Position numbers and translations under genes: made by a program. From Psammoneis japonica (lineage: Eukaryota), in NCBI GenBank assembly GCA_008632985.1, contig QPGO01000021.1, positions 248,001 through 312,000 on the forward strand: a DNA stretch of 64,000 nucleotides, given 5' to 3'. The notes below the pieces were generated by a model. It saw nothing but the letters and a program-made list of their open reading frames with translations. It searched no databases and was not told where the DNA came from. Below, one piece after another: positions 18,611 through 64,000 of the stretch. Numbering within the stretch: the stretch's first letter is position 1; the number at the start of each line of letters is the position of its first letter.

Positions 18611-18729
18611 GGTGATCTAACAACGGTCGTTGTGATCACGTGATCAGAGTTTTTTGTGTCAAAGGATTTGAGATTGAGAATGAGCGCGCGCCCAGTCGTT
18701 CAACGGTCAGACCAAGCAAAAATAACGAC

Positions 18730-23650: not shown

Positions 23651-23964
23651 ACAAAACTTGAAACTGCTGGGCGGGCTGGGTACGAACTTTAAAGCGAATC
23701 AGAAAATGACTTTAGAAATGACTATAATAGACAAAGAGGTAATAATGACCCTCAAAAACATAAGCCCCTTTTCGTTTTGCAACGTCCAAATGACTCTTCA
23801 GCATTCCAAAAAAAAACGTGTTACGTGCTACCTACTACCGAAGAAAGCATTCGTCCTTCACATATTTTATGTGTTGCAAGCTGATCGACTCAACAGAGGA
23901 CTTCGATGCCCCTTCGCTTGTGAACATCCACAAGAAATTTTCTTATCTTCAGCCGACCAACGCT

Positions 23965-35600: not shown

Positions 35601-36152
35601 ATCCTTTTAAAGTTCTTGGGCAAATGATGGAGGGAGTGTGTGAGCATTGACAATGAAACTCTTGACTTGCTCACATTCAAACCTGAGTGCTGCAACAGGA
35701 GTGGAGTTGATGCTTGCTGAGCACACCTGGGCTGCAACAGCAAAGGCTCCATGTGTGACTGGGCTGGTGTCAACTTTGGAGCTTGGCACAGGGATTTGTG
35801 TTTCCCATCTTGGCTTTGCTGTTTCTTTAAAAATCCAAGCAATGGTGAGTCACCAAATTGTTCACCCAAGCATGCACCAGACAGAAAAGCACTCAATGGC
35901 AGAGAGGCTTCAATGCACCAACCTGGTGAGTCATTGGCAATTGGACCAAGTGAAAAACCAGGATTTGTCAATGGCCAACAAAGTGGTGCACTCCCCTGAA
36001 CTATCTTGGTGCTGACAGATGCAATGAGAGACAAGTTGTTGGTGGATGAAGAGCAGCCAGGTGTTGCAGAGACACATGACAAGACCAGACATGTCTGGGT
36101 GGTTCAAAACAGGAGAACAACATGGGCAGACAAGCTCCACATGAGCACATGA
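32690..36152 (+). pseudogene. Plavaka-like (CACTA/EnSpm-related) transposase relic
   Basis: Fragments resemble Plavaka motifs as I recall them once TG/CA are reverted: AFG(C>Y)TPNLEK, (HH>YY)HKALKT(M>I)LQPL, VNG(N>D)TKSGNHLAG, CSRFC, DLDDP, NF(N>D)AGLG; many stops and frameshifts. Confidence 0.6.
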
Positions 36153-37345
36153 CAAGGTTTTTTTTTCAACAAGTGGTCATCACTGCAAGGGGCAACAAAG
36201 GTTGGGAAAGGGGTTGGCATGGTTTGTTTGTGTGCAACTCCCAACACATGTGACACTCACCTGAGTTTTGCATTGCGATGGGCTTCCAAGCTTCCAATGC
36301 TCATTCTTGGGTTTCTGACATTGGGTCTGACCAGGTTTCCATTTGTGACGAGTGTTTTTTGCTCAAAGGACAGGAGCTTTGATGGCTTTGTTTTGTTCTC
36401 CATCAGCAATGTCTTGAAGAACCACAACACTTTCTCTGTGTCTGGACAACATTCCTGGATTTCCTGCTCCATCACTTCCAAATGCATCTCTTCCTGATTA
36501 GATGGCTTGCCAAGCCATTCCACACTTTTTCAGTCACCAATTTTCATCAAAGCTTGGCAAATCCTCAAAACAACCTTGCTTGTGGTGTCCTCATTTGCAC
36601 CCAGGATGCACACACAAGTGCACATGAATTTCAAGTTTTTCACAACTTGTGCCAGTGACTGAAGGTCAAATGGAACAATGATTTTGGACCTGTGCAATCT
36701 TGGGTGTGTCAGACACATGATCACTTCTTGCAGATTCTCTAAAAAAAATGTTGTCCAAATGCATGTGGTCTGTTGCCATTCCCCTCATTGCACCCAGCAG
36801 CAGCCCACACAATTTTGACAAAGCCATTCATTCCAAAACCAATGTTGCCCCAAAATTGTTCTAAAACCCTCTCCACAAAATCTTTGAAAGAAACATTGCA
36901 GCTCAGGTGATGGGTGCTGCTTCTGTCCCAGAGCAAAATGGTGTGTGCTTCTGTGCGCACTTGTGTCTTCTTTGTTGATCAGAAACTGCCAACCCAATGC
37001 CTGGGTTGGGGCACAACTCATCCAAAGAGAAGTCTCTTGCATTCACTGGTCTGGTCATGCCAAGCCAAAGGAACTTGGTGCTGCTGTCATCCCTGCAAAT
37101 GAATGGGAACAATTGTCACCTCAATCAGAGGAGGAGCAACGTGCTGCTGGACAATTTGCTGCACCAACAAACAAATGGGACTCACACTGTGGTTTGCAGG
37201 ACACAAACCACAGTTTGTGGGACACAAACTTTCCTGTCAGGAATGCTCACAAAAACTGGCAGTTGTGCACTGGGAGGGAACTCGTTGTCTGAATCCACTT
37301 GCACAACAAAGTCAGTTCTGGCAGTTGCAAGCTTTGCAATCCAAT

Positions 37346-37630
37346 GAGTCCAAATTGTTGTCAGCTGTGGGTCCAGAAACAACAGAGGCAGACAATGTGG
37401 TGGTGCACTCCATGGATGCATGATCTGTCATTGAGCCCAAATCAATGTTGGCCACAGAACCAGAAAGAAGGGAGGTTGACAAGTCGTCAGTTGCTGAGCC
37501 CAAATCATTGTCAGCTGCCAGTCCAGAAACAACAGAGGCAGACACAGACTCTGCGAACTTGTCTGTCATTGAGTCCAAACCATTGTCAACCATGGCAGGA
37601 TCAGAAAGGAGGAAAGTTGATGAGTCATTG
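37346..37630. repeat. Internal direct duplication of a ~140-150 bp unit
   Basis: GTCCAGAAACAACAGAGGCAGACA and TCTGTCATTGAG-CCAAA...CAGAAAG-AGG-A-GTTGA each occur twice. Confidence 0.7.
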
Positions 37631-40600
37631 GCTGTTTGCACATGCTCAGCCAATGCAGTGTCCAAGATCCTCTTGGAGAAGTCTTCATGTTCACAAACAC
37701 TGCCCACTGTGTTGGCACAAGATTTGGTCAACATGCCAGAACCTGGTGTTGTTGGCTTTGTGCACAGGACAGATCATGGTTGACACAGTCCACAGTTTGA
37801 CACTTGGCAGTGCCATGCTCCTGACAAAGATGCCGCAGGCTAGATGCCAGATGGAGAGAAGGCAAAAATGTCTTGACCTGAAACAGGACTCCCCAGAACA
37901 AGCAATGGAATGTGTTGGTGCAACAAGGGCTCAGTTCAATTCCCTTGATTGCTTGGTCCCAGTTTCAGAGGGGATCCTGTCATGAGTCAGAGGCTGTTCT
38001 TCTGACTTGATGTGTGCTTCAGCTGTTCTACAGCTCCAGAATTGAAAATGAGGCACACAATGTCATTTGGACAAGAATGGTCCTTCGAGACAAGAACAGT
38101 GTCTGGCAAGAGCAAGATGTTGCAGAACCAAAATGAGACAAAACTCAAAGAAAGCTGTCCCACAGTTTTCCCACACATCACAGGCTGCCTTGCATCATTG
38201 TTTGGATTTGCGCCAAACTCATCTCCTGTGTCTGTGTTTTCATCAATCTAAAGCAGAGTTGTGCAAATTTTATCTGCCATTTTGTCAACCACTGGATTTG
38301 CCTTGTCATTGTCATTGGGGTCCAAAAGAACCCCGCCCTTTGCAAACTTCTTGTCCATCATGTCAGTGGGGCTGATCTGCCCCACCTGTTTGTCCCCTGA
38401 AGGAAACACCAAACTTCTTCATCATCAACTTTTGGAAGAGCACAAATGGGTCCATTCCTTCACAACAGAGATTGGGCAAGTGCTTGTTGTCACCAATGCA
38501 GCAAAAATGGTGGCACCTGGCAGGACAACCTGCCAAAATTGCAAGACCCATGACATGTTTGGGGTCAGGGTCAAACCTGCACAGTCCACCATTCCTTTGA
38601 ATTGGCAAAAACAACTGTGGCTGGAGCTGAGAGATGAGTGTCTCTCACAGGGCAAGCTGGTGGCTTCAATTGGTCCATGCACACTTTGGGAACACTGGTG
38701 GTGCCACCGCCGCCTGTTGCAACAGACAACCAAGGACAACTGTCATCCAGCAACAAGTGCTTGAATGCATTTGCAGATGGCTCAACCTCTGGGTGGGAGG
38801 GACTGTCATGCATGAGGTCCATGTCTTGCAGTGCACAGTCCAGTTGAGCTTTGTTGCAATGCATCTGCATCAGCACTGGTTGCATGTTGAACTTGTCATT
38901 GCAATGAAACTCATCCATGATGAAGAAACAACTTGCTGATGTCTTCAAGCAGCAATGCCAGCTGCAGCTGTTTGCATTGTGGTGACCTGCACAGTGCTGG
39001 CCATGACCTTGCATTGTGCAGTTCTCCTGTTTGAAACATGGGCAACCCAACTTGTCAGCCAAAATCTTGGCATGCTCATCACACCAAAGCAACCAGTTGA
39101 AAGGCAGAGGGTTGTTTGCTTTCTTGAGCCACCTTGTTTTCACAAAGCTGCAAGAGTCCAAAATGTCTGCAACTGCAGCCTTTGTCTTGGCAGACAAATG
39201 TTTGTAAAGTTCTCCTCATCCACATCAAACACATCAAGATCTCAAGTCTCCATTGGCTTTGTAGACTTGGTGGAGCCTGGCTCCTTCCAATGACACTTCT
39301 GTCCAGCACACCCAAACTTGATCATTCTTCTGTCTCCAGATGCCACAGTGTTCAATCCATCATGCTTGAGATTGGGTTTGCCCTTCAATGAAATGAAAAG
39401 CAGTGGGGGTGGGCACACAACATGGAGACTGCCAAAGCAAGATTGGCAAAACTGCACTTGCTCGCCTTGCAACAGATGGCACCTCCAAGCAATGATCTAG
39501 ATCAGGAGGGTGATCCACTTGGACACACCGGCAGGCCCCTTGGCAGGATTGCCTGTGGGAGTTTTGTTGGCAAACTTGTGCCAGCCAGTTGTGCACCAAC
39601 TTGTCTGCAAGGTGGAAGTCACCAGCAGAGTGGTGCAGAATGTGCTCAATGTCAGTGGCCTTGTCAATGATGTGCAGGCATGACAAATGAGCAACAACTT
39701 CATCAGAGGCAACAGGGTGACATTTGGATGGGTTGAAGCATTGGCAGACCGTCAACACATCCAGCCACACAGCATGTCATTGGGGTTCTGCAGTGGGGAG
39801 TCAACAATCAGGTGCTTCACAGCAATGCTGGCAGGGCTGGAAGTGGAAGGATGAAGAAGGTTTGGCCAGGGTGATCATGTCCAACAAAGTGGGAATGTTG
39901 GAGGCAAGGGTGTGATGAGAATCCCTCAACAATGACACATTGTCAGATGCTGTGGGAGGAGTTGGGTTGGAAGGAGCAAAGGTCTTGGCCTTCTTGCAAG
40001 GGATGGTCAAAGAAAGCTCTTGTGGAACAAAGAAAAATTTGGAGAAAAGAAATTCATGAGACTGAGGGACATGGGAATGTTCAGGCAAACAAGTGTGCTT
40101 GCTGGCATCACACAAACAGATGGGTTTTTGATTTGCACTCTTGTTTGTGTTCATCTTCCAAACACCAGTCAGCTCTCTGGTTGTGTCTTCTGCAATGGAG
40201 CATCATGAGCTGCTTGCAGCACATGGGGTGGGTGCCGGGCTGCTCTTTCAGACTTCAGACAATGCTTCCCAAATTCTTGCTCCTCCCAGTGGGCCTTGGC
40301 ATTGCAATTCTTTGTCACCAGGCACTTTGTGCCATGAATTTCGTCTGTGACATGTGCCTTGATGGCATCCTCCTCTGACCCAACTTTGCCAGACTCACAA
40401 ATGACAAGAAAGCTGTTGACAAATGTGCAGCAATTCTTCTGTGTCAACCTTCCAAAAAACCCACAAGAGCCAACAACTGGTTCCTTCTGCTTGCGTTGCA
40501 CATGGTGCATGCATGACTGTTTCAGCAACAAAGAAAGCACCATGAAGGTCACATGCTTGGTGACAATCAAGGCCAGGAGACTGACACACTTCCAAAAATG

Positions 40601-41949
40601 GAAACAAGGCTTGTTGCCTGTCAGCAGATCATTGAGGTTCTCACCAGCAGCAATGATGTGGTGCACAAACTCAACCATCACATTGATGTTGCAGCAGAGT
40701 TTGTGACATTGCTGCTTCTCCTTCCCCATCTCACCAGGTGTTGCAGAGAACTCAAGAGCTTCCTCTGGCTTTCTGCATCAAAGAACATGGCCACCCTTGG
40801 CTTGACAGGATCTCTTGATTCCCCAACCACAAGTTGATGCAGGACCACATGTCAGGACATCCGAAGGACTTCCTTGCAACATTGTTGGTGTGGATGACTT
40901 CTACAACATGTGGAAGATGATGAAGTTTGGCTTGTGGCAAAGGAAGGGAGGCACCAGGAATTCTGGAGAGGGTGCCCAATTTGTTTGCTCCATGAATTGC
41001 ATTTTTTAAAGGCACATGCTGTGTTGTGCTTTTGAGCTTTGGCCCAAACAACTCTGTTCCAAAACCATTGGCAAAACATTCCCCATGTCATCAAAATCAA
41101 CATTGCCATTGAAAACAAATGAGGGGTTGGGGTTGACCTCATTGGCTGATGGGGCAAAGTTGTTCACTGCCATGGCCAGTTGTTGATTGGAGACAACAAC
41201 ACGTGCAATGCACGCAAATCACAGCAGTGCACACTCTTGCTTTTCCACATTTGGGGAGAGAGTGTGCCATTGTGAAATGTGCAGATGTTGGTGCACATGA
41301 AAAAATGCTGATGAAGCCACAGACCAACATGCTGTGTGAATCTGGGAAGCAGGAAAAAACGAGGGTGCACACATGGTGGTGGCAACTTGGGCATGCAGGG
41401 GCAATGTGGCACATGCACATGAGTGAGGAGGGCAAAGTTAAAACCAAGTTCAGTTGAAAAGCAACAAAAAAAAACAGGTGTCACTGAAGGTGACATTGCA
41501 AAGAGAGTCAACCAATGCATGCATGTTGTTGAAGCCAGTGTCGGAAGAGCAAACTCAGAAACAAAACAAACATGCCAAACAAAAGCATTTTGTTTGACAT
41601 GGTCACTCAAATTCTGCACATTCAACTGGTTGGTGAAACTGGTTGGTGAGCTCAGCAACAACTGCACAAACATTTACAAAGGAAAGCCAAAGCTGTTTGT
41701 TCTCCATTTGATCTGGTGCCACATGCCAATTGCAAGACTTTGGCCAATGCCAAGTGTCTTTCACAGGTGCAGCTTGACCCATCCAATGGAGAGGTCTTGA
41801 ATTGCAGCTGAGTTTCAACTCCATTTTCTTGAGGAAACCATGACCCAAAGCAACATTGCTGCAAGCACACATGGCACTCAAAAACACAGTTGGTGGTTCC
41901 AGCCACAGAGCGTGTTTTGTCAAACTCTGGGAAAGTCAAGTCACAGAGC

Positions 41950-43270
41950 AAGACCCAGTGGCCAGATTGAAGTGGCCCAGCTGGCATCTGAAAGAAGCAA
42001 GGCTCTCTTTCTCACCAACCAATGGTTTTGTGTCTGTGGCAGCCCCATGGAATGGACAAGAGCATGAGAACTGCATCCTCCACAACTTGGAGTGCATCAC
42101 CATGAGAAGCTGCTCAAGCCCCCAGTTGCTGGCATTTTCTGCTTGAGCAGTTCTCTGGCTCCAACCTCAAGCATCAGTGCAATCAGCATTGCCATCTTGA
42201 ATGTTCTGATTTTGATTGTTGCAGCGATGCTGGCCACCACCCTGGTGATTTGCACCATTGCTGCCTCAAGATTCATGGCAACTGCAGTTGTCATTGTCAC
42301 AGGTGCCTTTCACCATGACTGCCATGGCACCCACCACCCATGTCCATGGCCACCACACACCACACAATTGCCACAGACTGCCTTGACTTGGTTGCTCTGC
42401 TGGCACCCCCTGATGTCCTTGATGGTTGGGATTCTGAGGGTTGTCATGGCACTGTGCCCACCAGGAATGGAGTCCCTCATGCTGTGGCACACTGGACATG
42501 GGTCACTGGGATTTGGCTGCATCTTGCTGCCTTCTCAACCATTGCTCATGTCCACAAACACTCTTGAGTTCATGCTGCCACCTCCATTGCCACTGCAGCC
42601 ACTGTCATCATGGCTTCTGTTGCAATCATCCTTGCTTGCCACTGTCAACAAATGGCTTGTTGATGTCCATGCGTGTTTGCAGATCCAACACTGCATCAGC
42701 AGTCAAACTCTTGCCTGCTTGCATGCACAGCTGCTGCCAGTCAAAAAATGTCTTTCATCTCCTGCTCTGTGAGAACAAAAAGGCAGCTCCAGACAAATTT
42801 TGGCACAGCAAAACACATGGTTTTCATGTGGCTAATGTGTGCAGCAGTTTTGGCTGAAAATGACTTCTTGCAAGCACAGGCAAGCATGCTTTTGCATTGT
42901 CACAAGCTGCTGCTTTGAGTGGCACCAATGTGCCAAATTTCAATCCAACAGCATGAGCATGAGCTGATCCACACTGGCAGCAACATTTGACCATTTTCCT
43001 TTGGCAGCAGTGTCACAGCCACAAGCAATCTTCAAAGTGGCCAAACAGCTCCAGCCCAATTGTGTGCTGAAAGTGGCAAGCCAGTTTGGAAAACTGATTC
43101 TCAATGCACAACAATGCTTTGGCACCATGCTCCCCACTGAAAATTGGACAAGTGCTTCAAGCACCATTGTTGAACTTCTGCATGAGGTTGAGATGTCTTT
43201 GAGGAGAGGACAAACAAGTTTTGCATTGTGTGCAATTCAAGCAGTCTCCAGAGCAGCTTGATGCATGATG
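41950..43270 (-). pseudogene. Possible gag-like relic of an LTR retrotransposon
   Basis: Across a frameshift reads DPCPV-PQHEGLHSWWAQC(H>Y)DNPQNPN, a C-x-H-x-H-x-C knuckle followed by a Gly-rich tail; similarity from memory only. Confidence 0.3.
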
Positions 43271-43293
43271 TGACAACATTTGGAAGCTGGCCA

Positions 43294-43364
43294 ATCATCA
43301 TCATCAACAACAACAACAACAACAACAACAATGACAACAACAACAGCAACAACAACAGCAACAA
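43294..43364. repeat. (ATC)n/(CAA)n microsatellite
   Basis: atcatcatcatcaacaacaacaac...caacagcaacaacaacagcaac. Confidence 0.85.
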
Positions 43365-44312
43365 AGACAATTTGTCATCACACAGCCCATGCAACACATC
43401 TGTGATCAACAACCAAGCAAAAAAGTGCCTTAAACTCAACTGCATTGGGATGAGTTTTGATGTCAATGAACAATGCTCCATTCACCAACTTCAAGCATGG
43501 CTGCAATTGTTTCCTTTATGAGCCTCATTTCAACCCACATTCAAATCAATCTCTCTTTTTTTCTTTTTGTTGGTGTTCTGAGGATGGGGAGATGCCATTG
43601 CTTGCTGCAAGACAGTGGATGAGAGCAAGAAACAAGACAACAACAGCTGCAACAACAGCACAAGATCTGGCTTGAGATGGCTTGACATTCTTGACAATTG
43701 TGAGGAGAACCAAGAAGGGGGTGCTGTGGGGGTGAAACCCTTCAAATGGCTCCCCTGGAAAACACTGTGCGATTGTGTGCTGAGTGTGCCAGGACAGTTG
43801 CTGCACTGTTGATGTCATTCCCACAGGTGTGTGCTGCAATCATGGTTTTTTACAAACTTTTGCTGAAATTACATGCTCACTTGTTTTTTCATGTCTCGCC
43901 ATTTCTGCTGAGATCATTGCCAGTTTGCTGCTGTCTCAAATCACCGCTCATTTCAAGCAATCTCCAAGAGTTCTCAAATGTGCTCACTTTGGCTGCCAAG
44001 CCACTTTCCCCTCTGTCACACCTCACAATTTTCTGGAATGCCAAAATCTTGGATTCCATTTGTGTGACAATGCTGGACAAAGAAGATGAGAAATGCTGGG
44101 AGGAGCAAAGCCAAGGAGTCATCAACTTTGGCGGCTCAACAGACAGAGAGAAACTCTTGAGGGGCTTCAAGCTCCAACCACTTGAGTTGCAGTTGATTGA
44201 ACCAATTGGCACAGGGGCTGTTGCTTTCATGTCTGCATCATCTTCATGGCTGAGACATTCATGCCATCACATCAGCCATGCACTGGACTGTCATTGGCGC
44301 TCACCAGTGCCA

Positions 44313-44350
44313 GTGCTCAAATGTGCTCAAACATGCTCAAATGTGCTCAC
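44313..44350. repeat. 10-bp tandem repeat, about four copies
   Basis: gtgctcaa atgtgctcaa acatgctcaa atgtgctcac. Confidence 0.75.
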
Positions 44351-44989
44351 TTGTGATGAATGTGTTTGCATCTGTGAGTGCATGTCACAAAAATGCAACA
44401 TCTGTCCTGCCTGGCACATTTGTTGCCAATCTGTTGCAAGGCAGGTGGCAGCCACGCAGGCAGGCCACACAGGCATGAGCATGCAGACAGAGCCCACAAA
44501 TGTTCCCTGCTGCTGCATCAGCATCCACACTCTGCACGGCACAGTGGAAGCGACTCTGCTCCTCTCATTGATGCAGTGCATGTTGAGACAGTTCATTGCT
44601 TGCTGCATGTGCCACATGGCACGCAGGTGCACACAGTCTCCTTTCAGTTGCCACGATGAAAATGGTCGCTGATGGGTGAAGTGAGAGATGCCTGACTGCT
44701 CCATGGTGTCTCCCATCCTGCCAGAACAATGAGGGGTGCCTTGGGCTGACCTCATTTTTGCTGCTTTCATCCAATCATCTGGCTGCTGTGGCCGGCTGGG
44801 ACAGATTCTGCAGGACAGGCATGCAGGCACAGACCCACCTGTCACCTGCAGGCAGGCCTGCAGCACCATGCGGGCATTTTGCTCAAAACGTGCGAATTTC
44901 GTGCGACAACATTTTGAAAAAACATGTGTCACGTTGTGGCCATCATGATGTGCAACTTGAATCACGTTTTGTTGAAACACCACCTTTTG

Positions 44990-45120
44990 CTCAAACATGT
45001 CATGTTTGAGAAAACAGGACTCAATGTTTGAGGAATTGCTCAAACTTTGCGCAACTTTGAGCACTTGCTCAAACTTGCTGCTCAAACTTGTGCGCAAAGT
45101 TTGAGCACTTGCTCAAATGT
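44990..45120. repeat. Cluster of GCTCAAA/TTTGAGC direct and inverted motifs (subterminal-repeat-like)
   Basis: CTCAAACATG-t-CATGTTTGAG (44990-45010); GCTCAAA...TTTGAGC hairpins at ~45038-45062 and ~45080-45106. Confidence 0.7.
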
Positions 45121-45691
45121 GCAAAATTGATGCCAGCAGTCTGCCGGTGTGAAACTGCCATGCAGCACCAGCCCACCACACCGCACATGCTGTGTGCACT
45201 GCTGTCACTGCTTTCAATGCATGCATCTGTCAGTGCAAAGTGAACCCAACGGAAACAAGGTGTTTGCAGTCGTTGCCGGCAAACAACAAAATTGCAACCA
45301 TTGCACCATGGTGACATGAACAATGATTTCTCTGTGACAATGCCTTCAAGAAACCCAGTGTTCCAATGAAAGACATGTGACACAAACTCACACATGAAAA
45401 TGTTGAAAGTTCCAGCAGAATGGGCTTGTTGGGGGGGCTGCGGGGACCAACAAGGAACAGTGTCATGCAACAACATTTTGTCTTTTGTTTCGATCAAAAA
45501 CATTTTTCAAACCATGCCTTGGCATTGACGTGTGCCATGATGTTCACATTCATTGTTCCAAGTAAAAAACACGTCAAATGGATCATCAGCAAGTGCTGGC
45601 ATTAGACCATCTTCATGTTGTCATCACAGCCCCGTTCATCATTGTGCCAATGCAGATTTTTTGTTTTTTGGATGCGCGTTTCTTTCCAGCA

Positions 45692-46950
45692 ATGGCCAAG
45701 AGGGTCACTGAAGACCAAGGCCTTGAAAATGGCGGTCAATGTTTGCAGGGGGAGCAACTGTGGGCATCCGTTCATCGCGTTTATGATCGCCATCCCGAGG
45801 AAACAATCACTTGGTCATTTGTGCACCACACAGTCAAGTGGTGAACGCCATTTTTCAGTGTGATGGAGGGATAATTTTGCAAAGGATTCATGATTGCTTC
45901 ACTGTGGAATTTGGAAGTTTTTTCAGCATGTTTGCAACTCAGAAGAGATGCAGAATCCCACCGGAGTGGAGGTGATTGAGATCTGCTGCACCCAACACCG
46001 GATGTCATTGGGGACGGGCACAATCCGGCAGACTTCTTGAGTGAGAACAAGCTTTCAATGTTGGTGAACAACATGGACCACTCATGTGAGGATGCTGAAG
46101 TGTGTCTCGTGGCGGAGCCAGAGTTGGACATCAACGCATGTCCTCTGCCACCCACTCTCAAACAAGATGCCTCAAAAGAGATGGCTCCCACACTTCAACC
46201 ACTTTGGAGTGAGACTCGTCACAACATGAAAGAAGATGATGTTTGCTGCGGCACACGTCCATCGGATGCTCCCGATGTGCCTCACAAGTCAGAGTCTGCA
46301 AGTGACGAACTGATTCACAAAGTGATGACCATCGTTGACAAAAAGAGAATCACAGTCAAGAACATGGATGACTGCGGAGACCATGCAAGTGCTTTTGTTT
46401 GTTGTCACTCGTTTTTGTGTGGAGGCTCATTTGAGAATGGAATCTCACATTCATGTGTTGCCGCTTTGCTCCAAACCAGGTTGATTTCACCATCGATGAC
46501 AAGACATCTTCATTCAAGTGCACTGCCACTGTGTGGAAAGAGATGTTTGAGACAGCAAAGCATCGTCTCTTTGATGGGGCGGTGCATTTGGACAAGATCA
46601 TGCAAGGGGACTGTCTCATCGGAAGGGGCAAGCAAGACCGGACGTCTCCGGCACAATGCTTCGTCATTGATGAAAACATGGCAAAGCCAGGAACTCGCAA
46701 CAAGGCTTTCAAAATCAACTGGGATGATTTCCCAATGATTTGCACAATTGACTCTGCATGCACAAAGAAGCAACGGGATTGGAAAACAAATCTTTGTGCA
46801 CCCCCCAATCGCACGTGGAAATGCACCGCTCCGTTGCACCAAGACCCGCCGAAGTTGGGGGTTCGCAGCCTCCACAAAGACAGTCTTGGACTTGTGTTTC
46901 ATGATGGGGTCACATGTGCACAAGCCCCGCTTGTGTCACTCGATTGCTCT
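45692..46950 (+). pseudogene. Degenerate coding sequence of unknown function, nearly Tyr-free
   Basis: Protein-like stretches in successive frames (46037-46738, 46453-46974) with CpG retained, TpA absent, and Cys/His where Tyr might be expected. Confidence 0.4.
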
Positions 46951-46999
46951 CAGTGTTGGAATCTAGAGAGTTGAGTGCAGATGTTTCCCTTGCACCCGC

Positions 47000-47330
47000 C
47001 ATCGTGTTCTGCCATTTCTCTCATCACCTGCCAGTGCCGGTGCCGGTGCTCTCTCTCTCTCTCTAGAGTTGCAGCTCTCTGCCACTGCCAGAGAGGGCCT
47101 CTCTGCTCTCTTTCTCTCTCTCTCTCTCTCTCCACTTCCACCACTGGAGCAGCAGCAGCAGAGCAGCTGCACCGGTGGCTCTGCTCCCTGTGATGGCTGG
47201 CCCCACTCTCCAGAGAACAGTGGGCAGAGCAGTGTGATGCGACTCTCTCTGCTAGTGGTGGTAGCTAGAGTAGCTGCTACTCTCTCTCTAGCAGCTGCTA
47301 GCTAGTAGAGAGAGAGTAGGGCTAGAGGTC
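47000..47330. repeat. Low-complexity tract at the position matching 23520-23650, grading from CAG/CTG/CCA to TAG/CTA
   Basis: Lies between the same conserved anchors (GCACCCGCCATC ... AAAACTTGAAAC) as in copy 1. Confidence 0.7.
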
Positions 47331-47718
47331 TAAAACTTGAAACGGTGGCCTTACAGTGCCGGCACCTGCCATGACCAACTAACAAAGCGAAATCAGACAC
47401 TGTAAATGACTTTGGAAATGACTATGATAGACACAAAGGTAATAATGACTCCAGCTTTTTTTAATGATGATATAAATGAAGCTATTTTTCCATGTAAGAA
47501 AAACATAAGCCTCTTTGCGTTTTGCAACGTCCAAATGACTCTTCAGCATTCCGTGTTACTGTACTCTAGGTACCGGTACCGAAGAAAGCACAATAATTCG
47601 TCCTGCACATGTTTTTTTTTTTTTTTTTGGGCAAGCTATCGACTCAACAGAGGACTTCGATGCCCCTTCGCTTGTGAACATCCACAAGAAATTTTCTTAT
47701 CTTCAGCCGACCAACGCT

Positions 47719-50211
47719 ATGCGGTTCAATTCCTTTGCATTGTTGATAACGGCTGTGCTTACGGATGCCGGTTTCCCCAACAACATGGGAAAAAAGGATC
47801 GAGTAAAACTTCAGAGCATCTTAAGTGGCAAACTACAAATACCAGCAGATTTGCCATTTTTTGTAAAATATAAAAGCAAAAGAGGAAAGAGAGTGGCAAA
47901 ACGTTGGGCGAAGAACGAAAGGTTTGAAAAGAACTACCCCAAGAAAAGTCTTCTAATAATGCGTCCAGCAAACAGCACTGCTCTGAGGGCGCTTTCGAAG
48001 AGTCATTTTGTGGAATACATTGAACCAGTCCACAATGTACATGCTTTACCTTCAAACGGACTCGCCTTTTCAACCACCCATGAACAAAAGGAAATCTCCC
48101 GCGCATTGCAAGAAACAGTTGGCTATGGCATCGACATGGTACAGGCATCTCAGTTGTGGAATACTCCTAATGCCACAGAATTGACCATTTGTGTCATTGA
48201 CAGTGGGTTCGCCCTTGGACATCCTGACTTACCGAATCTTGATTCAGGAGTTACAGGAAGCTCCGGTAGAACTGGATATTGGGGACAAGATGGTTATGGT
48301 CATGGCTCACACTGCTCGGGGGTAATCGGCGCCATTGGGAGAAATAACCGAGGTGTTGCTGGCATCATGGGCGACGCGAACCCGTTCAAGCTTCACATTG
48401 GGAAGTGTTTAGATGACAATGGCGAGGGTTCTGAAATAGACTTAATTGATGCATTTGAAAGCTGCACTGCCGCCGGAGCAAACGTCATTAGCATGAGTCT
48501 AGGTGGAGAAGACTACAGCGAATCGTTCCGAAATATTTGTAAGGAGGCTTATGACGATGGGGTCCTCTTAGTTGGTGCAGCTGGAAATGGTGGAGATGAC
48601 AGCCATATGTTTCCCGCTTCGTATCCAGAAGTAATGTCCGTAGCAGCGGTTGATAAAGATATGAAGGTTGCGGGTTTCTCGCAATTCAATGACCAAGTAG
48701 AGATTGCAGGGCCGGGAGTAGACATTGTTTCCACCGTTCCAACAAACAAAGGACAAGGGTTTGGCTACGACACCTGGAGTGGTACTTCTATGGCGACACC
48801 CCACGTCGCCGGAGTAGCCGCGTTGGTTTGGGGGTACTTTCCACAGTGTTCGAATAACCAGATTCGCAATGTGCTCGTTCGAACTGCCATGGCTGATGGT
48901 GGCGGATGCAATCATGAGATAGGTTTCGGTGTTGTCCAGGCAAAAGATGCTTACGATCTACTGTTGGCAGAGGGATGCGGTGCTGGTGATCCATCCCTTG
49001 TACCTCTGTCAGCAAATGCCCGCGGGGGTTGTGCTCAAGATCCTTTCTATCGACCACCACCTACAGCATCACCGACTGCATTTGTGTGCACAGAAAAGAT
49101 ATTCTCACTTGAACTCACTACAGATGAATGGCCGGAGGAGACAGCATGGGATGTCGAAAATTCCTCAGGCGATCTTGTCGGTTCCGGCAGTGGTTACCGA
49201 AAAGGTTCACTGTACGAGGAAAAGCTTTGTCTCCCTGCTGACTACTACACCTTTACAATAAGAGATTCGGAAGGTGACGGTATCTGCTGCAAATATGGAT
49301 CTGGAAGTTATGTTGTTTACTTTGATGGTGACCTGATATCTGAAGGTGGGAGTTTTGGAGCAGTTGTCACAGTTGCGTTTGGGGAGAATCAAATAAACAA
49401 CAATCCTACCTCGCCCCATGAGTCGCTACTGGGAAATATCGAATCCAATGGCATTTGCAAGGATGACAAGGACTGGAGTTACACAAATCCAAAAGGAAGA
49501 ACGAAAAAGTGTAAATACTTGATGACAAATACAGCTACAAGATGTCAAATCGTGGGTTCTGATAGGTTTGGTAACAGCTCACCTGGCTTTGTTTCTTGCC
49601 CGGCTACGTGTGGGAGCTGTCCACCGACTGCTGCTGCTGCATCTCAGCCAGCAATACTGTCAACCGCATCACCGACTCCCCTACCAACATCATCACCATC
49701 CGTTCCACCATCGTGGTCACCAACTGAAAGCCCAAGTACTTCGCCAACGCAGTCTCCGACAATCTCACCTACTTATCAACCTACAGTGTCACCGACTCGT
49801 ACACCGACCAAGGTACCGACCGAGCGGCGACAGTGGCGCCAACCAAGCTCCCTACTCGGACACCGACTCAGATTCCGACTAACGTCCCACGAACGCTCCG
49901 ACACCGGTTCCAACAAAGCGCCCAACTGATCAACCAACAACATCCCCTACACCGCCTCCAACGAAGCCACCAACACGTAAACCCACGCCGAATCCCACAC
50001 CGAAACCCGCGCCCAAGAAATGCAAATCAAGGTGGAAGTAAGTCACGTTGTACACTCGTTTATTGCGATCTACTCGACTGTCACTCACGCTCTATGCCTT
50101 CTCAACGTTTTCATTAGGGAGTGTACGAATGATGTGAATGGGTGCTGCTCTGGCCTTCGCTGCATTGGAGATAGGTCCTACCGCGAGTGCACTCCACCAG
50201 ATGACATTTGA
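47719..50211 (+). CDS. Secreted subtilisin-like serine protease (S8), copy 2; frameshift(s) from ~49826 in the PT stalk; intron 50038-50117
   Basis: Close paralog of copy 1 with VIDSG, HGSHCSG and SGTSMATPH; shorter PT region. Confidence 0.88.
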
Positions 50212-57307: not shown

Positions 57308-59994
57308 TCAATCATCATTCTTTATGCCGCAAAACGACGTTTCATGCCGAAGGCCAGGACGCACGGGTTTCACGGTAAAGATGCGGCAAACGTAAGCACG
57401 AGTCTCCTTGACCCGTTCCACATCAAATCCCGAACAAGACACAGACTTGCGACATTGCTTCTTGCACAGTTTGGGTGTCAAATAAAAGTATGAAAGGAAG
57501 AACCCACACATTTGTGTTTGGCATGCAGCGTGAATAGTCTTTTCTTTGTATTCGAAGCGTCTTGAGGTTCGTTGCCATTCACGGCGACTGTAGGCTGGTG
57601 ACCAGTTGGGCCCATTGTGGGAGTGTTATCATACTCGGCCTCTCGGCGAGTTGTGCTACCTGCTCTGACGACAAACTATTGGCCCAAACATAGACTTCAT
57701 CCAAAAGTCCAAGGTATGGTTCGTGAGTGGGTAGAAGCCTCAGATTCATTTTTTCATCACTGTGCCCGAATCCACCAATACTCATACTGCCAGTGGTGGT
57801 AAAGAACAAGAAATCGTCTTTGCCTTCTACGTTGGTAGCAACCGTCATACCGTCGATGAAGAGTCGCACTTCCGAGAGCCGACAACTATTTCTTGGCATG
57901 GCGACGGCCAAATGATGCCACTGGTTGTCGGCCAGGGTCACGTTTTCCGTCGTGGCGGCGACTAATTTCATGTTGGCTCCAGCGTAAAGAGCGGGGACGC
58001 CTTCATCTAGAGTGAGCGAGAAGATTGGGAGCTTGGAGTATCCCGTGTGTGCAAGCCGTTCACCGAAATGAAGCAGTACCTGTTTTCGGCGGGATGCCTC
58101 CGTTTTGAACCAAAGTGCATATGACACCTTTAAGCCAGCACTATGCGGACCCAACCTTCAAGAACCAAAACAAAGCTCGAATTAGCTCATTTTCTCTTTT
58201 CGTCCATCACACACAGCTCAGATGGGTGGCAGTGCTTACGCGAAAATTGCGACGCGACTCGATGTGTTGAAAACTGCAGCTTTGCCCTTGATGCCCTCGA
58301 AAAACCCAAATTTCCAAATTGAGCATCGTATTGTTCTGCAAGAGTTGTTGAGAAAGAAAAGAAATTTGAGCATGCAAACTCCAAATAACATCAGTGTCAC
58401 TGTAACTATGCTTGAGAATAGAAACGTACGACCGAATTCCCCCTATTCGGTAAAGAGTCAAAGCATTCAACTCCTTGTACTGTGATCTTGCGCTGGATAA
58501 GTGTTTTCCGAATATCATCGTGTTTCATTGAAGGGACGGGCCGTTTCGACAAGGGAACTGTCTCGTCAAATGAGATGGAAATCATTTCCCGTTTTCGACT
58601 TAGATATTTGAGTGATCCGGTCGACTTGAACGAAGTTTCCTTGCCCGACTTGTCAATGATGATTGGCCGTAGAACTCGTAGTTATCGTTGTGCCTTGCTT
58701 TGAGTCCGACTTCTTGTACTGAGTGATATTAATGATCGTGTCGGACACGTCGACGGTGACAAAGTTCTGGATGCCAAGTCCAGTCGACACAATTTGGACA
58801 AGAGTCGAACCATTGTCCTTGGTGGCCGTGTTGGCGTGACCTAGTCCAAGCAAAAACCCACATTGGTGGTAAGTAACGGCATAGTCAGAGAAAATGGGAT
58901 GGAAAGGACATAAGGAGAGAGAGAGAGAGACGGAACACGCACTTCACCAGCAAAATATACGTCAACTTCGAAGTCCCGCATAGCCTTGAAGAAGGCCGAG
59001 TTTTCCGCTCCATCCATGAATTGGCCAGTGGATCGGATTTTGCGTACGGGTTGGAGAATGGGTGGATGAGCCTGTACAAAAATATGATTAATCGTGGGAT
59101 CTTGGCGTGCTTCACGCAATACTTCTCGGAACCAATCCAAATGCCGTCCTGTCACGTCGCAAGTCACCGAACCCTCGCCCCCGAGACCTTTCTTCTTGTC
59201 GATGAAGTCAAACGAAAGTGACTGATATGCATCAATGGTAATAAACAATGTATTCTTGTGTTGGTATGCGTACGACGTTTTATCAAAGATTGTCCCCAGA
59301 GGACGAGAGTCAGCTTCTGCGGATAGACGAAAATGTTCAAGACGAAAAGGTTAGAACAAACGATAGAACAAGAATAGAATACGCGCAGGAGACATTAGGA
59401 TAGGGAACGCATGTACATTTGAAGCAACAGGTAAAGCTTACTCCCGATACGATCACCATAAAGAAACTGTCCATTGGGATCGCTATTGAACTCTTGAAAA
59501 AAGACTTGCCGAAATTGTGGCAAAAGGTCCGATTTCAAACGTCGTTTTGGCCATGAATTGTCTCCAATTTCATGATCGCCGATAGCAACTATCAGTTTGG
59601 AGTATCCAGCTTGATCAAAGACAAATTTCATTCCCTCGTAGCATCGTTTTCCTGCTTTCATTACCGCTTCCTCGGCTGTGGTAACGTTCAGCAAACCGAG
59701 GAATTTATCGAGGTGCCATAATCCGCCATTGGTGTCGCCTGGGACGAGTACAAAATCTCCACCATAGTTATCCTTTATGTGCTTGAATGTTTTGATTCTT
59801 TTGACAGTCAAAGCGTGTCGAGGAAGAAGAAGATCGTTCACATGATTGATTGGGTTCAGCACGAAATGCTCCGCACCGTGCCAGTCGGCCAAGGTAACAA
59901 AACGCCACGTTTCTTCAGCCTTGGCCGGCATGCAGCACCATGAATACAACAATAGTGCTATTTTCAACAAAGAATTGTTGTCACTCTGAACCAT
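57308..59994 (-). CDS. Secreted calcineurin-like metallophosphoesterase with a LamG/concanavalin-like domain, multi-exon; 3' end uncertain
   Basis: LADWHG, VPGDTN, AIGDHE, VQAHPP and YFAGEV; LADNQWHHLAV, LFIDG, LLDEVYVW; possible terminal Cys module CKKQCRKSVSCSGFD. Confidence 0.72.
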
Positions 59995-60519
59995 CGTCCA
60001 TTAACTTGCGATTGTGAAACAAATCGGCATCGTCTGCTGCCTCAGCTCATCACTGTGTTCTTCTTTGGGTGTGTGAGTTACTTACACTGTAGTTCGCTTT
60101 CCGTCAACAATTTTAAAAAAGCTATGTATGTACCGGTATGACACAGTACTACGAATTGCTGAACAATTGCGCGATTCACGTGCCCGAAGGCCGAATATCG
60201 TTGCCCGAAGCAACATTCTCCCTTCGCGCAGATGTCCATTCTACGTAGCCTATGGTATTGAAAATCTCATTGTAGTCGTATGAGTCGTCGCGGGAATTTC
60301 ATCAAATGACTTCGTGGTACTGGGCTACGTGATCTACACAAATCGGACATTTTAGCAGCGCAGGGGGAAGGACAGACGCATCCACCCCCCAACGCACGCA
60401 GCCTTGAACGACCTGAATGCCAATGGCATTCTTTGCAACTCGTCGCCGCCTACCGAGGCCGTAGTAGTAGTTGTAAACTTTTTGACAAAGGGAGCGACAT
60501 ACGCCAACCTTATCTCTTG

Positions 60520-62614
60520 ATGGCTGCTGTCCCTCCTGTGGTCGCCGGTGGAGCGCCACCGGCACCCCCAAAAACACACCACGACAAGTGGATGACCCAA
60601 GGTGATCACTTGGGAGGGGAGCACGCGAATTTATACCGTCGATACGATGCCACCGTCGCTGCTCCCGAGCCGGCCGCTACGCTACTCGAGCACACCATCG
60701 ACTCGAGCGACGTGGCACCCAAGGCCTTTTTGGTGCTAGTGCGCCAAGGCACGGGGCACCGGATCACCTGCATCCACCGGCCCTCGGTTTGCACAAGAGA
60801 CCCGGTGGAGACCTCGCCGTGGGACGGTCGTGTGTTCTGTTTTCGAGGAGACGTGCTACCGGGTAACTTCATTACCATCCTCGAGTTGCCCAACACTCCG
60901 TTTGAAACTGTGGGTCCACAAGTGGCACCTGCGGTGGCCAACATGGCCGCCCTAGAAGGCACTCTGGTTGATGAAGAGGATTTGATGCCTCCGCAGACCG
61001 ATGGCGCCCCGGACACCGACACGATCTACGTCCGCCGACTTGTGCAGGTGCCCCATGCCTGTCTGCATCTCGTGCTGAACCGGGATCTCACTCCTCTGCA
61101 GGCCTGGCGGGAACTCGCAGGAGCAATCCAAAACGACGGACGCACGGGGGACTTGAGTCCCCTCATCGATTGGTTGTGCACGGCACTCACCACCGACACA
61201 GCGGTGAATCCAGATCCGGTTCAGTGTGTGGGTGATCGTGCCACCGCCTTGCCACCACTCGCGGTGGATGCCCGCCCACAGGAGCATCGCTGGCGTACGT
61301 TGTTGCAGGACCTTCCCGCCCTGGACACAACGGCCGTAGACAACACCGACCGGGTGCTGGCTTTCACCAACATAGTCCGCGCCGATGCAGCACGCGCGGA
61401 AGCAACACATTCCACAGCGGCGGCCGTGGCCGCCACCCCCAAAACTCCGACGGAAGCTTTCCCGCAGACTGCACCCGCATGGCTGTTGCTTTCGAGCGCA
61501 CCGGACGATGCGGCTTTACCCGCGCTGCACCACGCCTGGGCCAACAGCACCAAAGCCGAGCGGCGCCTGTGTTTTGCTCGCGCCTTGGAAGCTCGCACTC
61601 AAGAGCCTGACGCGGCATCCCGCACAGCACCTGCAGTCTCCAAGGAGTTGTGCGAGATGGTGTTGCAAGGGAAGGTAGCACCTCACGTGCACCAAGTGAA
61701 CGATTTGACCGCCGGCGTCTCCCCATTCACGTGCGGCTTCTTTTTGGCTGGACAAGGCTCCACTGCACAAGTCCGGGCCGAACGCTACGACCTTGCGTTG
61801 GCTGGCAACTTGACGCCCACCGTTGCGGAACAGGAGGAGTTCCGCACCAAGGACACACCTCTTCCCACGTCCACTCACCATTGCGGAAGCATGCTTCAAG
61901 CTGCCAGTCTGGTGTTGGACGTCATCCAAGGATCGAATCACCCCCATGCTGTGGCGTTCTGGCAGTTCTGCTTGGAAGATTGGCGAGACATGGTCGACCT
62001 GCTCGAACAATCGGGAGCACTCCTGGCTGAGGGGAACGCACTTCCCCGCATCTGTCGCGAGGTGCAGATGCTCATGGGAGTCACCTGCGCAGGCTCACGC
62101 AAGGTGGTGCACCCCGGGTGCCCGACTACACCGCTGTGGCGCACAAGGTGCTCCACGGACAATTCTCCTTGCTGGCACAGTTGCCACGCCATTTGCTTGG
62201 CCAACCAGAGCAGACAACCAATTCCCAGGCGAGCTCGACCAGCGCCAGCAACAGTGGCACCCCTTCCGCGGCTGCCGCCGCTGCGGGACGTCGCGACCCG
62301 GGCACGGCCGTTGCGAATCCCAACCCGGTGCGGTCCTGGCTGACGGCCTTTGCACAAGCCGGGATCCGCCTAGCTACGGTCCGACGTTTCGCACCCCGAA
62401 CCACGGATTCAAGTGGCACCGCATGTGAAGTGTGCCTTTCCTGTCACCAAAAGGAACGTGCTTCGCCAACTGTGAGCGCAGCAACACGCACCGGAACCTC
62501 TCGCCACGAGAGAGGACGGCTGTGAGCGCGTTCGTTCGGGACCACGTGTCCAATCCCCAAGAAGGTGGCGCCCCAGCTCCGGCACCCGCGCCGGCACCGG
62601 CGGCCTCCACCTGA
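60520..62614 (+). pseudogene. ORF1 (gag-like) of the DIRS-like element, frameshifted and TpA-mutated
   Basis: Long ORF continuing across shifts near 62080 and 62450 to CLSCHQKGTCFANCERSNTH. Confidence 0.65.
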
Positions 62615-62665
62615 GGACGGGGGCCAGTCAGCCCTAAAGCTGGCCTGCAGCCCTCCTCTACCTGC

Positions 62666-64000
62666 TTGCCAGATCCGCACCAGCAGCATCCACGCAGCAA
62701 CGAACTAGGTAAGTTAGCAGAGGACCATGCCAAACTCTTACAAACTTTAGGCTGGAGCCAGTTCGTTGCACACCTGCGCAGGGAGCCGTGTCTGGTCGAG
62801 AATGTTCGGCAGCCACCCCACCCAGCTGCCGAGTTACTTTCTAAACTCCGCAACGACGGAGCACCGGTCCAGTTTTCAACGGAAGACTGGTCCCCTCACC
62901 GGGTCCGGATGGCGACCGACCGCGGGAGCCATCCGTCCACTCACGAGTGTCTGGGCTTCCTCGAATCGGACATGGTGGACATGATCCAGAAACGACACTG
63001 GACAGTCCTGCCGCACCGCGAAGCCTGCAAGCTCCCCCACCTGCGTGTCTCACCGATGGGCGTGGTGCCGCAACGCGACCGCCGCCCGCGCACCATCGTT
63101 GATTACAGCCATTACGGTCTCAACGACGAGACTGTCAAGCACGCCCCTCCAGAAGCCATGCAATTCGGTCGAGCTCTCGACAGGTTCTTGTGCAACATCT
63201 TCCGTGCAGACCCGAAGCACGGCCCGGCACACATGCTCAAGCTTGACCTTTCCGATGGGTTCTGTCGCGTCGGGCTGCGACCCCAGGACATGCCCAAGCT
63301 CGGGGTGGCCTTCCCAGCAGGCCCAGGGGAGGAACCGCTGACAGCGCTGCCTCTCGTCCTACCCATGGGCTGGACCGAGAGTCCGCCATTCTTTTGTGTG
63401 GGCACCGAGACGGTGATTGACTTGGCGAACAGCCACTCGCCCACAGCTTGGGACCCTCCGGTTCATCCCCTAGAACAGGCAGCGGCCACTCCAGCACCTC
63501 ACGACAACACCTTGCGCATCGACGTGCCGCCGCCTTCCAGTGCAGCTCCGACTAGCCGCGCATCACGCCTTCCTCCTCCCGCCGCTCTCCATCGCAGACC
63601 CCGACGGGGCTCTCAGCCACTGAAACTTCGATGTCTACGTCGATGATGAAACATGCGCCGCACAAGGAACGAAGGCTCGTCTCAACAAGCTACGTCGACG
63701 CCTCTTGCACATCAACGATCAAGTCTTCCGTCCCAACACACCGTCTGACGAGCACTGGCGGCGTGAAACCATCTCCCTCAAGAAACTCCTCAAAGGAGAC
63801 GCGTCGTGGTCGACAGTGAAGGTCATTTTGGGGTGGCTCATAGACACACTAGCCGGGACTGTCGAGTTGCCCCCGCATCATCGACAACGCCTCCTTGACA
63901 TTCTGGCTGACACCATCCCTCGCCGCCACATGTCCAACAAACAATGCTGCAAACTTCTCGACAAAGTCCGCAGCATGTTGTTGGCGGTGTCCGGTGGTGC
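62666..64000 (+). pseudogene. Reverse transcriptase ORF of the DIRS-like element, TpA-mutated, frameshift near 63620
   Basis: SPMGVVPQRDRRPRTIVDYS, MQFGRAL, KLDLSDGF(C)RV, LPMGWTESPPFF, VYVDD and KVILGWLIDT. Confidence 0.85.

Follow-up and report, generated by a model that had tools for sequence, protein, structure and literature searches.

RIP, as found in Neurospora and other fungi, converts C to T, mostly CpA to TpA, and thereby creates TpA, AT-richness and stop codons. APOBEC3 introduces G>A on cDNA, and ADAR introduces A>G on double-stranded RNA, where it favors a 5′ U; both act with a one-strand bias and in a looser sequence context. A:T>G:C transitions with a TA hotspot are made by polymerase eta at WA motifs in phase 2 of antibody hypermutation, an activity that may couple to the repair of deaminated 5-methylcytosine. 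To our knowledge, the known repeat-directed or methylation-driven mutation of eukaryotes is cytosine deamination, as in RIP, CpG decay and APOBEC. In diatoms, transposons are CpG-methylated and thereby silenced, and DNMT4 enzymes, relatives of the fungal RIP factor RID, are present and described as being of unknown function (PMC9998398).

Here we compare with these systems a retroelement copy that runs into the end of a 64,000-nucleotide stretch of Psammoneis japonica DNA, hereafter the window, and that has lost TpA through A:T>G:C transitions.

A tyrosine-recombinase retroelement at the end of the window

Judged from its sequence, the segment at 60135–64000 makes up the 5′ two-thirds of a tyrosine-recombinase retroelement that is present in many copies; this copy is dead, with three or more frameshifts. 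Its parts, all on the + strand, are the following:

60135..60310, + strand: 5′ edge of the element, preceding ORF1 and present in very high copy number (depth jump, loose contig ends, GC rise)
60568..62548, + strand: ORF1, in the gag position, with two frameshifts, near 62076–62086 and near 62450 (tblastn with P0361 and P0362)
62690..63598, + strand: N-terminal part of the RT/RNase H ORF, from the RT fingers and palm to a proline-rich linker, with the TpA finding inside (tblastn)
63598..63630, + strand: frameshift in the RT ORF just upstream of DVYVDDE (alignments end at 63577–63622 and restart at 63630 in another frame)
63630..63998, + strand: continuation of the RT from the YVDD motif onward, running into the window end (tblastn, 52–57% identity to P0001, P0003 and P0020)

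The 5′ border coincides with a rise in GC content from ~0.46 before 60000 to 0.58–0.62 after it (0.61 from 60135 to the end vs ~0.47 in the rest of the window), with a jump in summed contig depth from 43 in the bin 60001–60134 to 11,645 in the bin 60135–60268, and with a cluster of loose contig ends at 60153–60314. Further into the element, depth is ~450–2,000. The element is a multi-copy repeat, to which 791 contigs of the same organism from a public sequencing run align; 162 of them are at least 99% like the window, 213 are 95–99%, 228 are 90–95% and 188 are below 90%. Inside the window, neither tblastn nor blastn found a second copy, and no convincing terminal repeats of the DIRS kinds, inverted with an internal complementary region or split and direct, were seen in 59900–64000, a range that covers only the 5′ part of the element.

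According to tblastn with P0361 and P0362, ORF1 is spread over three frames (+1 at 60568/60574–62079, +3 at 62076–62513 and +2 at 62450–62548). It has 641 homologues of ~700 aa in the protein library (E ≤ 0.001), and no Pfam family matched it. The RT segment at 62690–63598 is 49–57% identical to P0001, P0003 and P0020 (tblastn), and the YxDD catalytic motif is present as DVYVDDE at 63630–63650. The Pfam family RVT_1 is weak in the window RT (E 0.066, below the Pfam cut-off) and in the six RT homologues scanned, four of which gave E-values of 1e-4 to 9e-3, always below the cut-off, while P0006 and P0025 gave none. Homologues of the RT frame, ~800 aa long and 45–60% identical to it, number in the hundreds and include hypothetical proteins of the diatom Fragilaria crotonensis and MMETSP transcripts; a search of the protein collection for nearer relatives or copies from the same genome returned proteins 57–67% identical at best.

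We compared 78 metagenome loci coding for relatives; many of these contigs are ~6 kb long, with ORF1 followed by the RT/RNase H ORF and then by a third ORF of ~395 aa that overlaps it. At 64000 the window cuts the copy off upstream of the RNase H domain and the recombinase gene, and the evidence for a recombinase, which the DIRS order has in place of a DDE integrase, is this third ORF of the relatives. A model of ORF3 from 25 metagenome loci (pLDDT 83) has as its best PDB fold matches Cre recombinase (E 2e-6, TM 0.60/0.73), which is why we assign the family to the tyrosine-recombinase retroelements; Pfam contained nothing for ORF3. A PDB sequence search with the ORF3 profile gave P450 matches, which we regard as chance, and the fold search settled the identity. 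The description of the element as DIRS-like in the initial annotation is thus supported through its relatives. These share with the DIRS order (DIRS1, Ngaro, PAT) a length of ~6 kb, ORF1, RT/RNase H and the overlapping Cre-like ORF, but differ in an RT below the RVT_1 cut-off and in a long ORF1 (~700 aa) without a known domain. The succession of gag-like ORF, RT/RH and recombinase is presumably the order of Ngaro and PAT, unlike that of DIRS1.

Codons of the RT region

The initial annotation had read, in a single RT, several residues as products of former TA-containing codons. Its sequence and coordinates are exact: the ORF at 62615–63646 (+) reads ...PKHGPAHMLKLDLSDGFCRVGLRPQDMPKLG..., with CAC at 63218–20, GCA at 63227–29, CAC at 63230–32, TGT at 63263–65 and ATG at 63290–92. 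The motif that it had given for such RTs is also correct, the majority consensus of 120 RT homologues being GPVYL.K.DISDGFYR...DIPKLGV, and CG is as plentiful in 62940–63660 as it had said (66 CG, o/e 0.96, vs 6 TA, o/e 0.24). Ten codons had been named as TA-derived. Counting residues per column among the 120 RT homologues, we could uphold this origin for six of them and had to leave two ambiguous, and two had been misread:

62948, TGT: Y 74, C 1; supported
63014, CAC: Y 77, H 0; supported
63227, GCA: V 84, A 1; supported
63263..63265, + strand, TGT (Cys): Y in 120/120 homologues, within the SDGFYR motif; supported
63290, ATG: I 76, M 2, with an ATA ancestor required; supported (ambiguous in the element-wide transition test)
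63230, CAC: Y 70, H 21; supported, more weakly
62996, CAC: Q 68, Y 25; ambiguous
63341, ACA: V 92, I 22, a single step from ATA only; ambiguous
63218, CAC: H commonest (34) vs Y 20; TA origin unsupported, His native
63191, TGC: R 73, pointing to CGC>TGC, a CpG change; TA origin unsupported

The TGT at 63263 can be explained by one A>G at TpA (TAT>TGT). At the column of 62948, His occurs in 34 of the 120 homologues. Four of the five conserved Tyr columns of the RT hold H or C in the window; when each of the 120 homologues was treated in the same way by leave-one-out, none had four Y>H/C replacements and one had three.

Transitions by ancestral context across the element

For the whole element, the ancestral state was polarized at the 455 columns in which 50% or more of the homologues share a residue, using 120 RT and 80 ORF1 homologues; ancestry here rests on proteins that are 45–60% (RT) and 27–51% (ORF1) identical, none closer having been found. 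The 125 differences comprise 45 multi-step changes, 38 single transversions and 4 ambiguous cases, the remainder being single transitions. Set against denominators that use the flanking bases of the present day, the transitions fall as follows:

A:T>G:C at TpA: 17/34 testable sites, 50%
A:T>G:C at other A/T: 2/241, 0.8%
G:C>A:T at CpG: 14/127, 11%
G:C>A:T at other G/C: 5/281, 1.8%

By Fisher's test, TpA differs from other A/T sites with p = 7e-16, CpG from other G/C sites with p = 1e-4, and TpA from CpG with p = 3e-6; none of the 48 AA/TT sites changed. Replacements are therefore enriched at ancestral TA, as the initial annotation had proposed. The conversion of TA codons in both directions is likewise confirmed, with T>C 11 times and A>G 6 times on the coding strand, a mixture that fits the proposal that both DNA strands are hit.

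The changes are found in both ORFs. Among 12 conserved Tyr columns of ORF1 and RT, 9 are H or C, 2 are Y and 1 is W, and no homologue comes close. ORF1 carries 9 TpA-type and 6 CpG-type single-step replacements, with 1 ambiguous case (61960). In 62690–63598, TpA-type replacements are located at 62813, 62948, 63014, 63227, 63230 and 63263, and CpG-type replacements at 63191 and 63398, 63290 being ambiguous. In 63630–63998, two are of the TpA type, at 63651 (I>T, ATA>ACA) and 63861 (I>V, where T precedes the A), and six are of the CpG type, including two R>H at columns that are 96–97% Arg.

The TpA signal is thus real, far beyond chance and stronger than the initial annotation could tell, and the interpretation placed on it is supported in part, with two exceptions. 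The statement that CpG stays intact is true in a relative sense only: 14 of 127 CpG sites changed, 2.6 times the level of intact relatives (p = 0.0025), and 10 sites that have lost CG in the window are CG elsewhere. The description of the element as a young target is not borne out either, given at least three frameshifts and TpA changes that are undated relative to the spread of the family.

TA- and CG-poor stretches elsewhere in the window

Three further parts of the window are poor in TA and CG:

27200–44400: ~17-kb block, TA o/e 0.05, CG 0.08, CA/TG 1.87/1.88, other dinucleotides near normal
44401–47000: stretch with TA o/e 0.03, CG 0.46
18600–20000: stretch with TA o/e 0.09, CG 0.38

The TA-poor region has sharp edges near 27,000 and 47,000. 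TpA loss is clearly ahead of CpG loss in the element, where 50% of TpA and 11% of CpG sites changed, and the order is the same at 44401–47000 and 18600–20000. The claim that TpA mutation does not require prior CpG decay therefore stands. The element matters in this respect because its protein homologues polarize TA as ancestral and CA/TG as derived, which composition alone cannot do; the same homologue comparison also places TpA loss before most CpG loss.

We searched 63 ORFs from the 17-kb block and the 18.6–20 kb stretch against Pfam and took no family as real; one match to Pneumo_att_G (E 0.0074, below the Pfam cut-off) was regarded as chance. When the element and the block were compared with the window in a purine/pyrimidine alphabet, the matches were only short and their E-values are uncalibrated for two letters; we drew no homology from them. 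The ORF at 31401–32387 (−) resembles Transposase_21/Plavaka clusters of the ESM Atlas (0.87, 136 shared features, below the reliability line of the tool); enrichment in Cys and His could mimic this signal, and we treat it as a lead only. The block is flanked by two subtilisin-like genes that are 91% identical, ~21 kb apart and ordinary in their spectrum. Either simple duplication is not enough to attract the process, or selection hides its signal in these paralogues.

Other copies in the same genome

The contigs that align to the element differ from the window at 879 variable places, including 658 transitions (C>T 203, G>A 166, A>G 145, T>C 144). Individual places are described here from the 40 of these 879 that were listed, apparently those at which nearly all contigs differ from the window. 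Two are codons with different outcomes in different copies:

60757..60759, + strand: CAC (His) in the window, TGC (Cys) in 3/3 covering contigs (60757 C>T, 60758 A>G, depth 155/155)
61876..61878, + strand: CAC (His) in the window, TGC (Cys) in 6/6 covering contigs (61876 C>T, 61877 A>G, depth 386/386)

At 60757–59, the closest homologues P0361, P0363 and P0366 have Tyr, and the column overall has P 23, gap 19 and Y 10 among 80 homologues; since Tyr is in the minority (10/80), its ancestry rests on these closest few. At 61876–78, Tyr is found in P0361, P0362, P0365, P0366 and P0367, in a column with L 17, Y 11 and F 11 among 80 homologues. If the ancestral codon was TAC, it would have become CA in one lineage and TG in another. 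Additionally, a hydrophobic column at 61478/9 has GCA in the window vs GTG in other contigs, and at 60452 and 62660 the window retains TA where other contigs have TG.

CpG changes are visible in the same comparison. TG or CA stands in the window at 10 places where the other contigs have CG (all of them, or 92–94% of the depth at 2 of the 10), and 4 of these 10 window-private places are also conserved columns with a CpG-type replacement. The copy has therefore undergone real CpG decay or, less likely, its methylated CpG sites were miscalled at these places. The 40 listed places, out of 879 that vary, include none of the 17 TpA-type sites, whose changes may have arisen in this copy or in an ancestor that it shares with others. 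Should the changes be shared, the family would have gone on multiplying despite a Cys in place of an invariant RT residue, which would require trans-mobilization or duplication.

The element thus displays a strict TpA context, changes in both directions, an excess over intact relatives and CA/TG outcomes that differ between copies at codons for which the closest homologues have Tyr. Taken as a whole, these features are probably best explained by a transition process almost confined to TpA that altered a dead copy of the tyrosine-recombinase retroelement.

The alternative that survives best is editing of RNA or cDNA at UpA/TpA by an adenosine deaminase during retrotransposition, comparable to the marks that ADAR or APOBEC enzymes leave on retroelements, with the edits fixed by integration and inherited by descendants rather than arising in the chromosome. 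The element is, after all, a retroelement, and the absence of TpA-type sites from the listed places (40/879) where nearly all contigs differ fits shared descent from an edited founder. Editing of the genomic RNA alone, however, would give A>G only, whereas the sense strand carries 11 T>C together with 6 A>G. Moreover, copies differ in outcome at codons for which the closest homologues have Tyr, so that the events must have recurred, and the 17-kb TA/CG-free block has no recognizable retroelement protein among the ORFs scanned against Pfam. We consider such editing unlikely as the source of the pattern.

Comparison with intact relatives

In 50 intact relatives, the same test of the RT/RNase H ORF gave apparent change at 119/2,322 TpA sites (5.1%, with a per-locus maximum of 20%), 1.8% of other A/T sites, 4.6% of CpG sites (maximum 12.4%) and 2.0% of other G/C sites. 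Against these pooled relatives, the window is strongly raised at TpA (odds ratio 18.5, p = 3e-13) and moderately at CpG (odds ratio 2.6, p = 0.0025) but not in the other classes. In ORF1, 5 of 7 Tyr columns are Y>H/C in the window; the highest number in any of 58 homologues is 2, and 52 of them lack such replacements. TA o/e is 0.35 in the element, whereas 78 relatives average 0.64 and reach down to 0.45. The window is also the extreme against 66 relatives on all five codon indices: Tyr codons (7.4 per 1,000 vs a minimum of 9.6), Cys codons (22.2 per 1,000 vs a maximum of 21.4), NTG codons (106.5 per 1,000 vs a maximum of 101), the T|A share at codon boundaries (0.04 vs a minimum of 0.07) and the Tyr/(Tyr+His+Cys) codon ratio (0.10 vs a minimum of 0.20).

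These controls bear on a second alternative, in which a functional lineage, kept low in TA by GC-rich codon use or by selection, has H, C, A and M as its native residues. GC-rich intact relatives do have TA o/e of 0.46–0.70 and reach 20% apparent TpA-type change, so that some 2–7 of the 17 changes may be ordinary divergence, and His is found in 21/120 homologues at 63230 and in 34/120 at 62948. Nevertheless, the window lies outside all relatives in TA o/e (78 loci) and in the five codon indices (66 loci), and A/T sites other than TpA did not shift to GC (2/241). It has Cys at a column where 120/120 homologues have Tyr and at least three frameshifts, and other copies in the same genome have Cys where the window has His. 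A native origin of these residues is accordingly improbable.

An assembly artefact, in which long reads of methylated repeats miscall modified bases as transitions, is more improbable again. The 10 places with TG/CA in the window and CG in every, or nearly every, contig do look like miscalled 5-methyl-CpG in an unpolished repeat. The TpA changes behave otherwise: the other contigs themselves have TGC at two codons with Tyr in the closest homologues and, at two further places, TG against TA in the window; the listed places (40/879), where nearly all contigs disagree with the window, include none of the 17 TpA-type sites; and 162 of the 791 contigs are at least 99% like it. Undirected A:T>G:C drift through GC-biased gene conversion or a general mutation bias agrees with the GC-richness of the element (0.61 vs ~0.47 in the rest of the window) but is hardly credible, because sites other than TpA changed in 2/241 cases, no more than in intact relatives (1.8%), and AA/TT sites in 0/48.

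Comparison with known mutational processes

The TpA-confined process that we favor shares with RIP a set of general features, namely transitions in repeats or transposons, dinucleotide specificity, action on both strands, sharp limits, possible saturation and the destruction of coding capacity. Unlike the targets of RIP, the element loses TpA, undergoes A:T>G:C, is not lowered in GC and gains no new stop codons from the process. TpA is depleted (o/e 0.35) and G:C>A:T outside CpG (5/281) equals that of intact relatives, so that the signature of RIP is absent; the 91%-identical subtilisin-like paralogues in the window also lack such a signature.

Methylation-driven CpG decay resembles what is seen at the 14/127 changed CpG sites of the element and in the CG-free block. 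The excess over other G/C sites (5/281, p = 1e-4) is the one expected of it, yet it explains the minor component only, since deamination of 5-methylcytosine cannot yield T>C or A>G at TpA.

APOBEC3 and ADAR editing have in common with the element context-dependent transitions throughout retroelement copies. They differ from it in that the element has both directions (11 and 6), a strict context (AA/TT 0/48) and outcomes that differ between chromosomal copies; ADAR-type hyperediting carried into DNA would leave clusters of A>G on one strand only, unlike the mixture on the sense strand. Polymerase eta likewise produces A:T>G:C transitions with a TA hotspot, but its WA motif covers AA, which is untouched in the element (TpA 17/34, AA/TT 0/48).

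Discussion

We envisage the TpA-confined process as follows. TA would be changed to CA (T>C) or to TG (A>G), two products that would be one change viewed from either strand: TpA is self-complementary, and a single type of event, A>G or T>C, acting on either strand yields both. In coding sequence, Tyr would become His or Cys, GTA-Val would become Ala, CTA-Leu would become Pro, and ATA-Ile would become Thr or Met. The target is probably the double-stranded chromosomal DNA of repeats, in which a slower CpG>TpG/CpA decay would proceed alongside. CA and TG are not self-complementary and would thus escape further change, which would explain an end point of TA-/CG-free, CA/TG-rich DNA like the block at 27.2–44.4 kb. 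As to the chemistry, our guess is that at TpA either A is deaminated to hypoxanthine or T is oxidized to a form that pairs with G.

A wider reading is that this is a novel repeat-directed hypermutation of the two pyrimidine-purine steps that are self-complementary, in which TpA is attacked first and CpG more slowly, both ending as CpA/TpG, and of which the DIRS-like copy at 60.1–64 kb would be an intermediate caught part-way. We offer it tentatively, as a serious possibility that has yet to outweigh its competitors; the tie between the TpA process and repeats comes from this one window. The literature searched yielded no description of a mutation process directed at TpA in repeats.

The practical consequences concern annotation. 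An end state free of TA and CG would be unable to encode Tyr or CGN-Arg and, because neither TAA nor TAG can form in it, would keep long open frames. Such DNA retains long false ORFs rich in Cys and His, its transposon homology is masked in protein searches, and annotation based on dinucleotides would be biased.

If the reading is correct, the finding would amount to a new mutational chemistry, by which TpA is removed through A:T>G:C ~60 times faster than other A/T sites are changed. Its TpA arm would need an activity at the DNA level, adenine deamination or thymine oxidation, that is new to eukaryotic genome defence. It might also represent a novel defence of the genome in an algal group of major ecological importance, one whose RID-like DNMT4 enzymes have no assigned function (PMC9998398).

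Possible terminal segment and metagenome relatives of the element

Relatives of the tyrosine-recombinase retroelement whose broken copy lies at the end of the window are widespread in aquatic metagenomes (loci L002–L077), where they occupy contigs of ~6 kb. These encode an ORF1 of ~700 aa, an RT/RNase H of ~830 aa and, in an overlapping ORF of ~395 aa, a Cre-like recombinase. Their TA observed/expected ratios (o/e) range from 0.45 to 0.89, and none of these relatives is depleted in TA to the level of the window copy (0.35). Summed contig depth delimits the following feature at the start of the copy:

60135–60268, first ~130 bases of the repeat

Depth across this segment reaches ~11,600, about 20 times that of the interior of the element, and in one contig the opposite strands are linked at 60190/60351. 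The segment may be a terminal piece that numerous other elements share, or else a small repeat of its own.

A block nearly devoid of TA and CG

The window has these further features:

18600–20000, TA-depleted, CG half-depleted stretch (TA o/e 0.09, CG o/e 0.38)
23794–26649, subtilisin-like protease gene with a Pro/Thr-rich tail
27000–47000, TA/CG-poor block
31401–32387, minus strand, open frame of 329 aa, Cys/His-rich, the longest of the block
44401–47000, TA-depleted, CG half-depleted stretch (TA o/e 0.03, CG o/e 0.46)
47539–49929, subtilisin-like protease gene with a Pro/Thr-rich tail

Both TA and CG are nearly absent over the ~20 kb of the block, whose limits are sharp on both sides. Within its core (27200–44400), TA o/e falls to 0.05 and CG o/e to 0.08, CA and TG rise to 1.87 and 1.88, respectively, and GC content is 0.467, as in the remainder of the window. 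The block is flanked by the two subtilisin-like genes, one on each side and in the same orientation; these paralogues are 91% identical across 2.4 kb, with an ordinary spectrum of differences.

A Pfam scan of 63 ORFs from the block and from 18.6–20 kb yielded no family that we took as real, the single match (E 0.0074) falling short of the cut-off. The closest Atlas clusters to the 329-aa frame are Transposase_21/Plavaka (score 0.87, 136 shared features, below the reliability line of the tool), a weak lead to such an affinity. Tandem repeats with a unit of ~150 bases occur at 37300–37640 and were detected only by self-comparison in a purine/pyrimidine alphabet.

Residual TA and partly depleted stretches

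Sixty-one TA dinucleotides remain in the core, 22 of them within TTAA; the majority of the others are preceded by T or followed by A. The TA-removing process may be unable to act on TTAA, or this motif may have been re-created through later changes. The stretches at 44401–47000 and 18600–20000, where CG is only half depleted, look like intermediates in which TpA loss precedes CpG loss.
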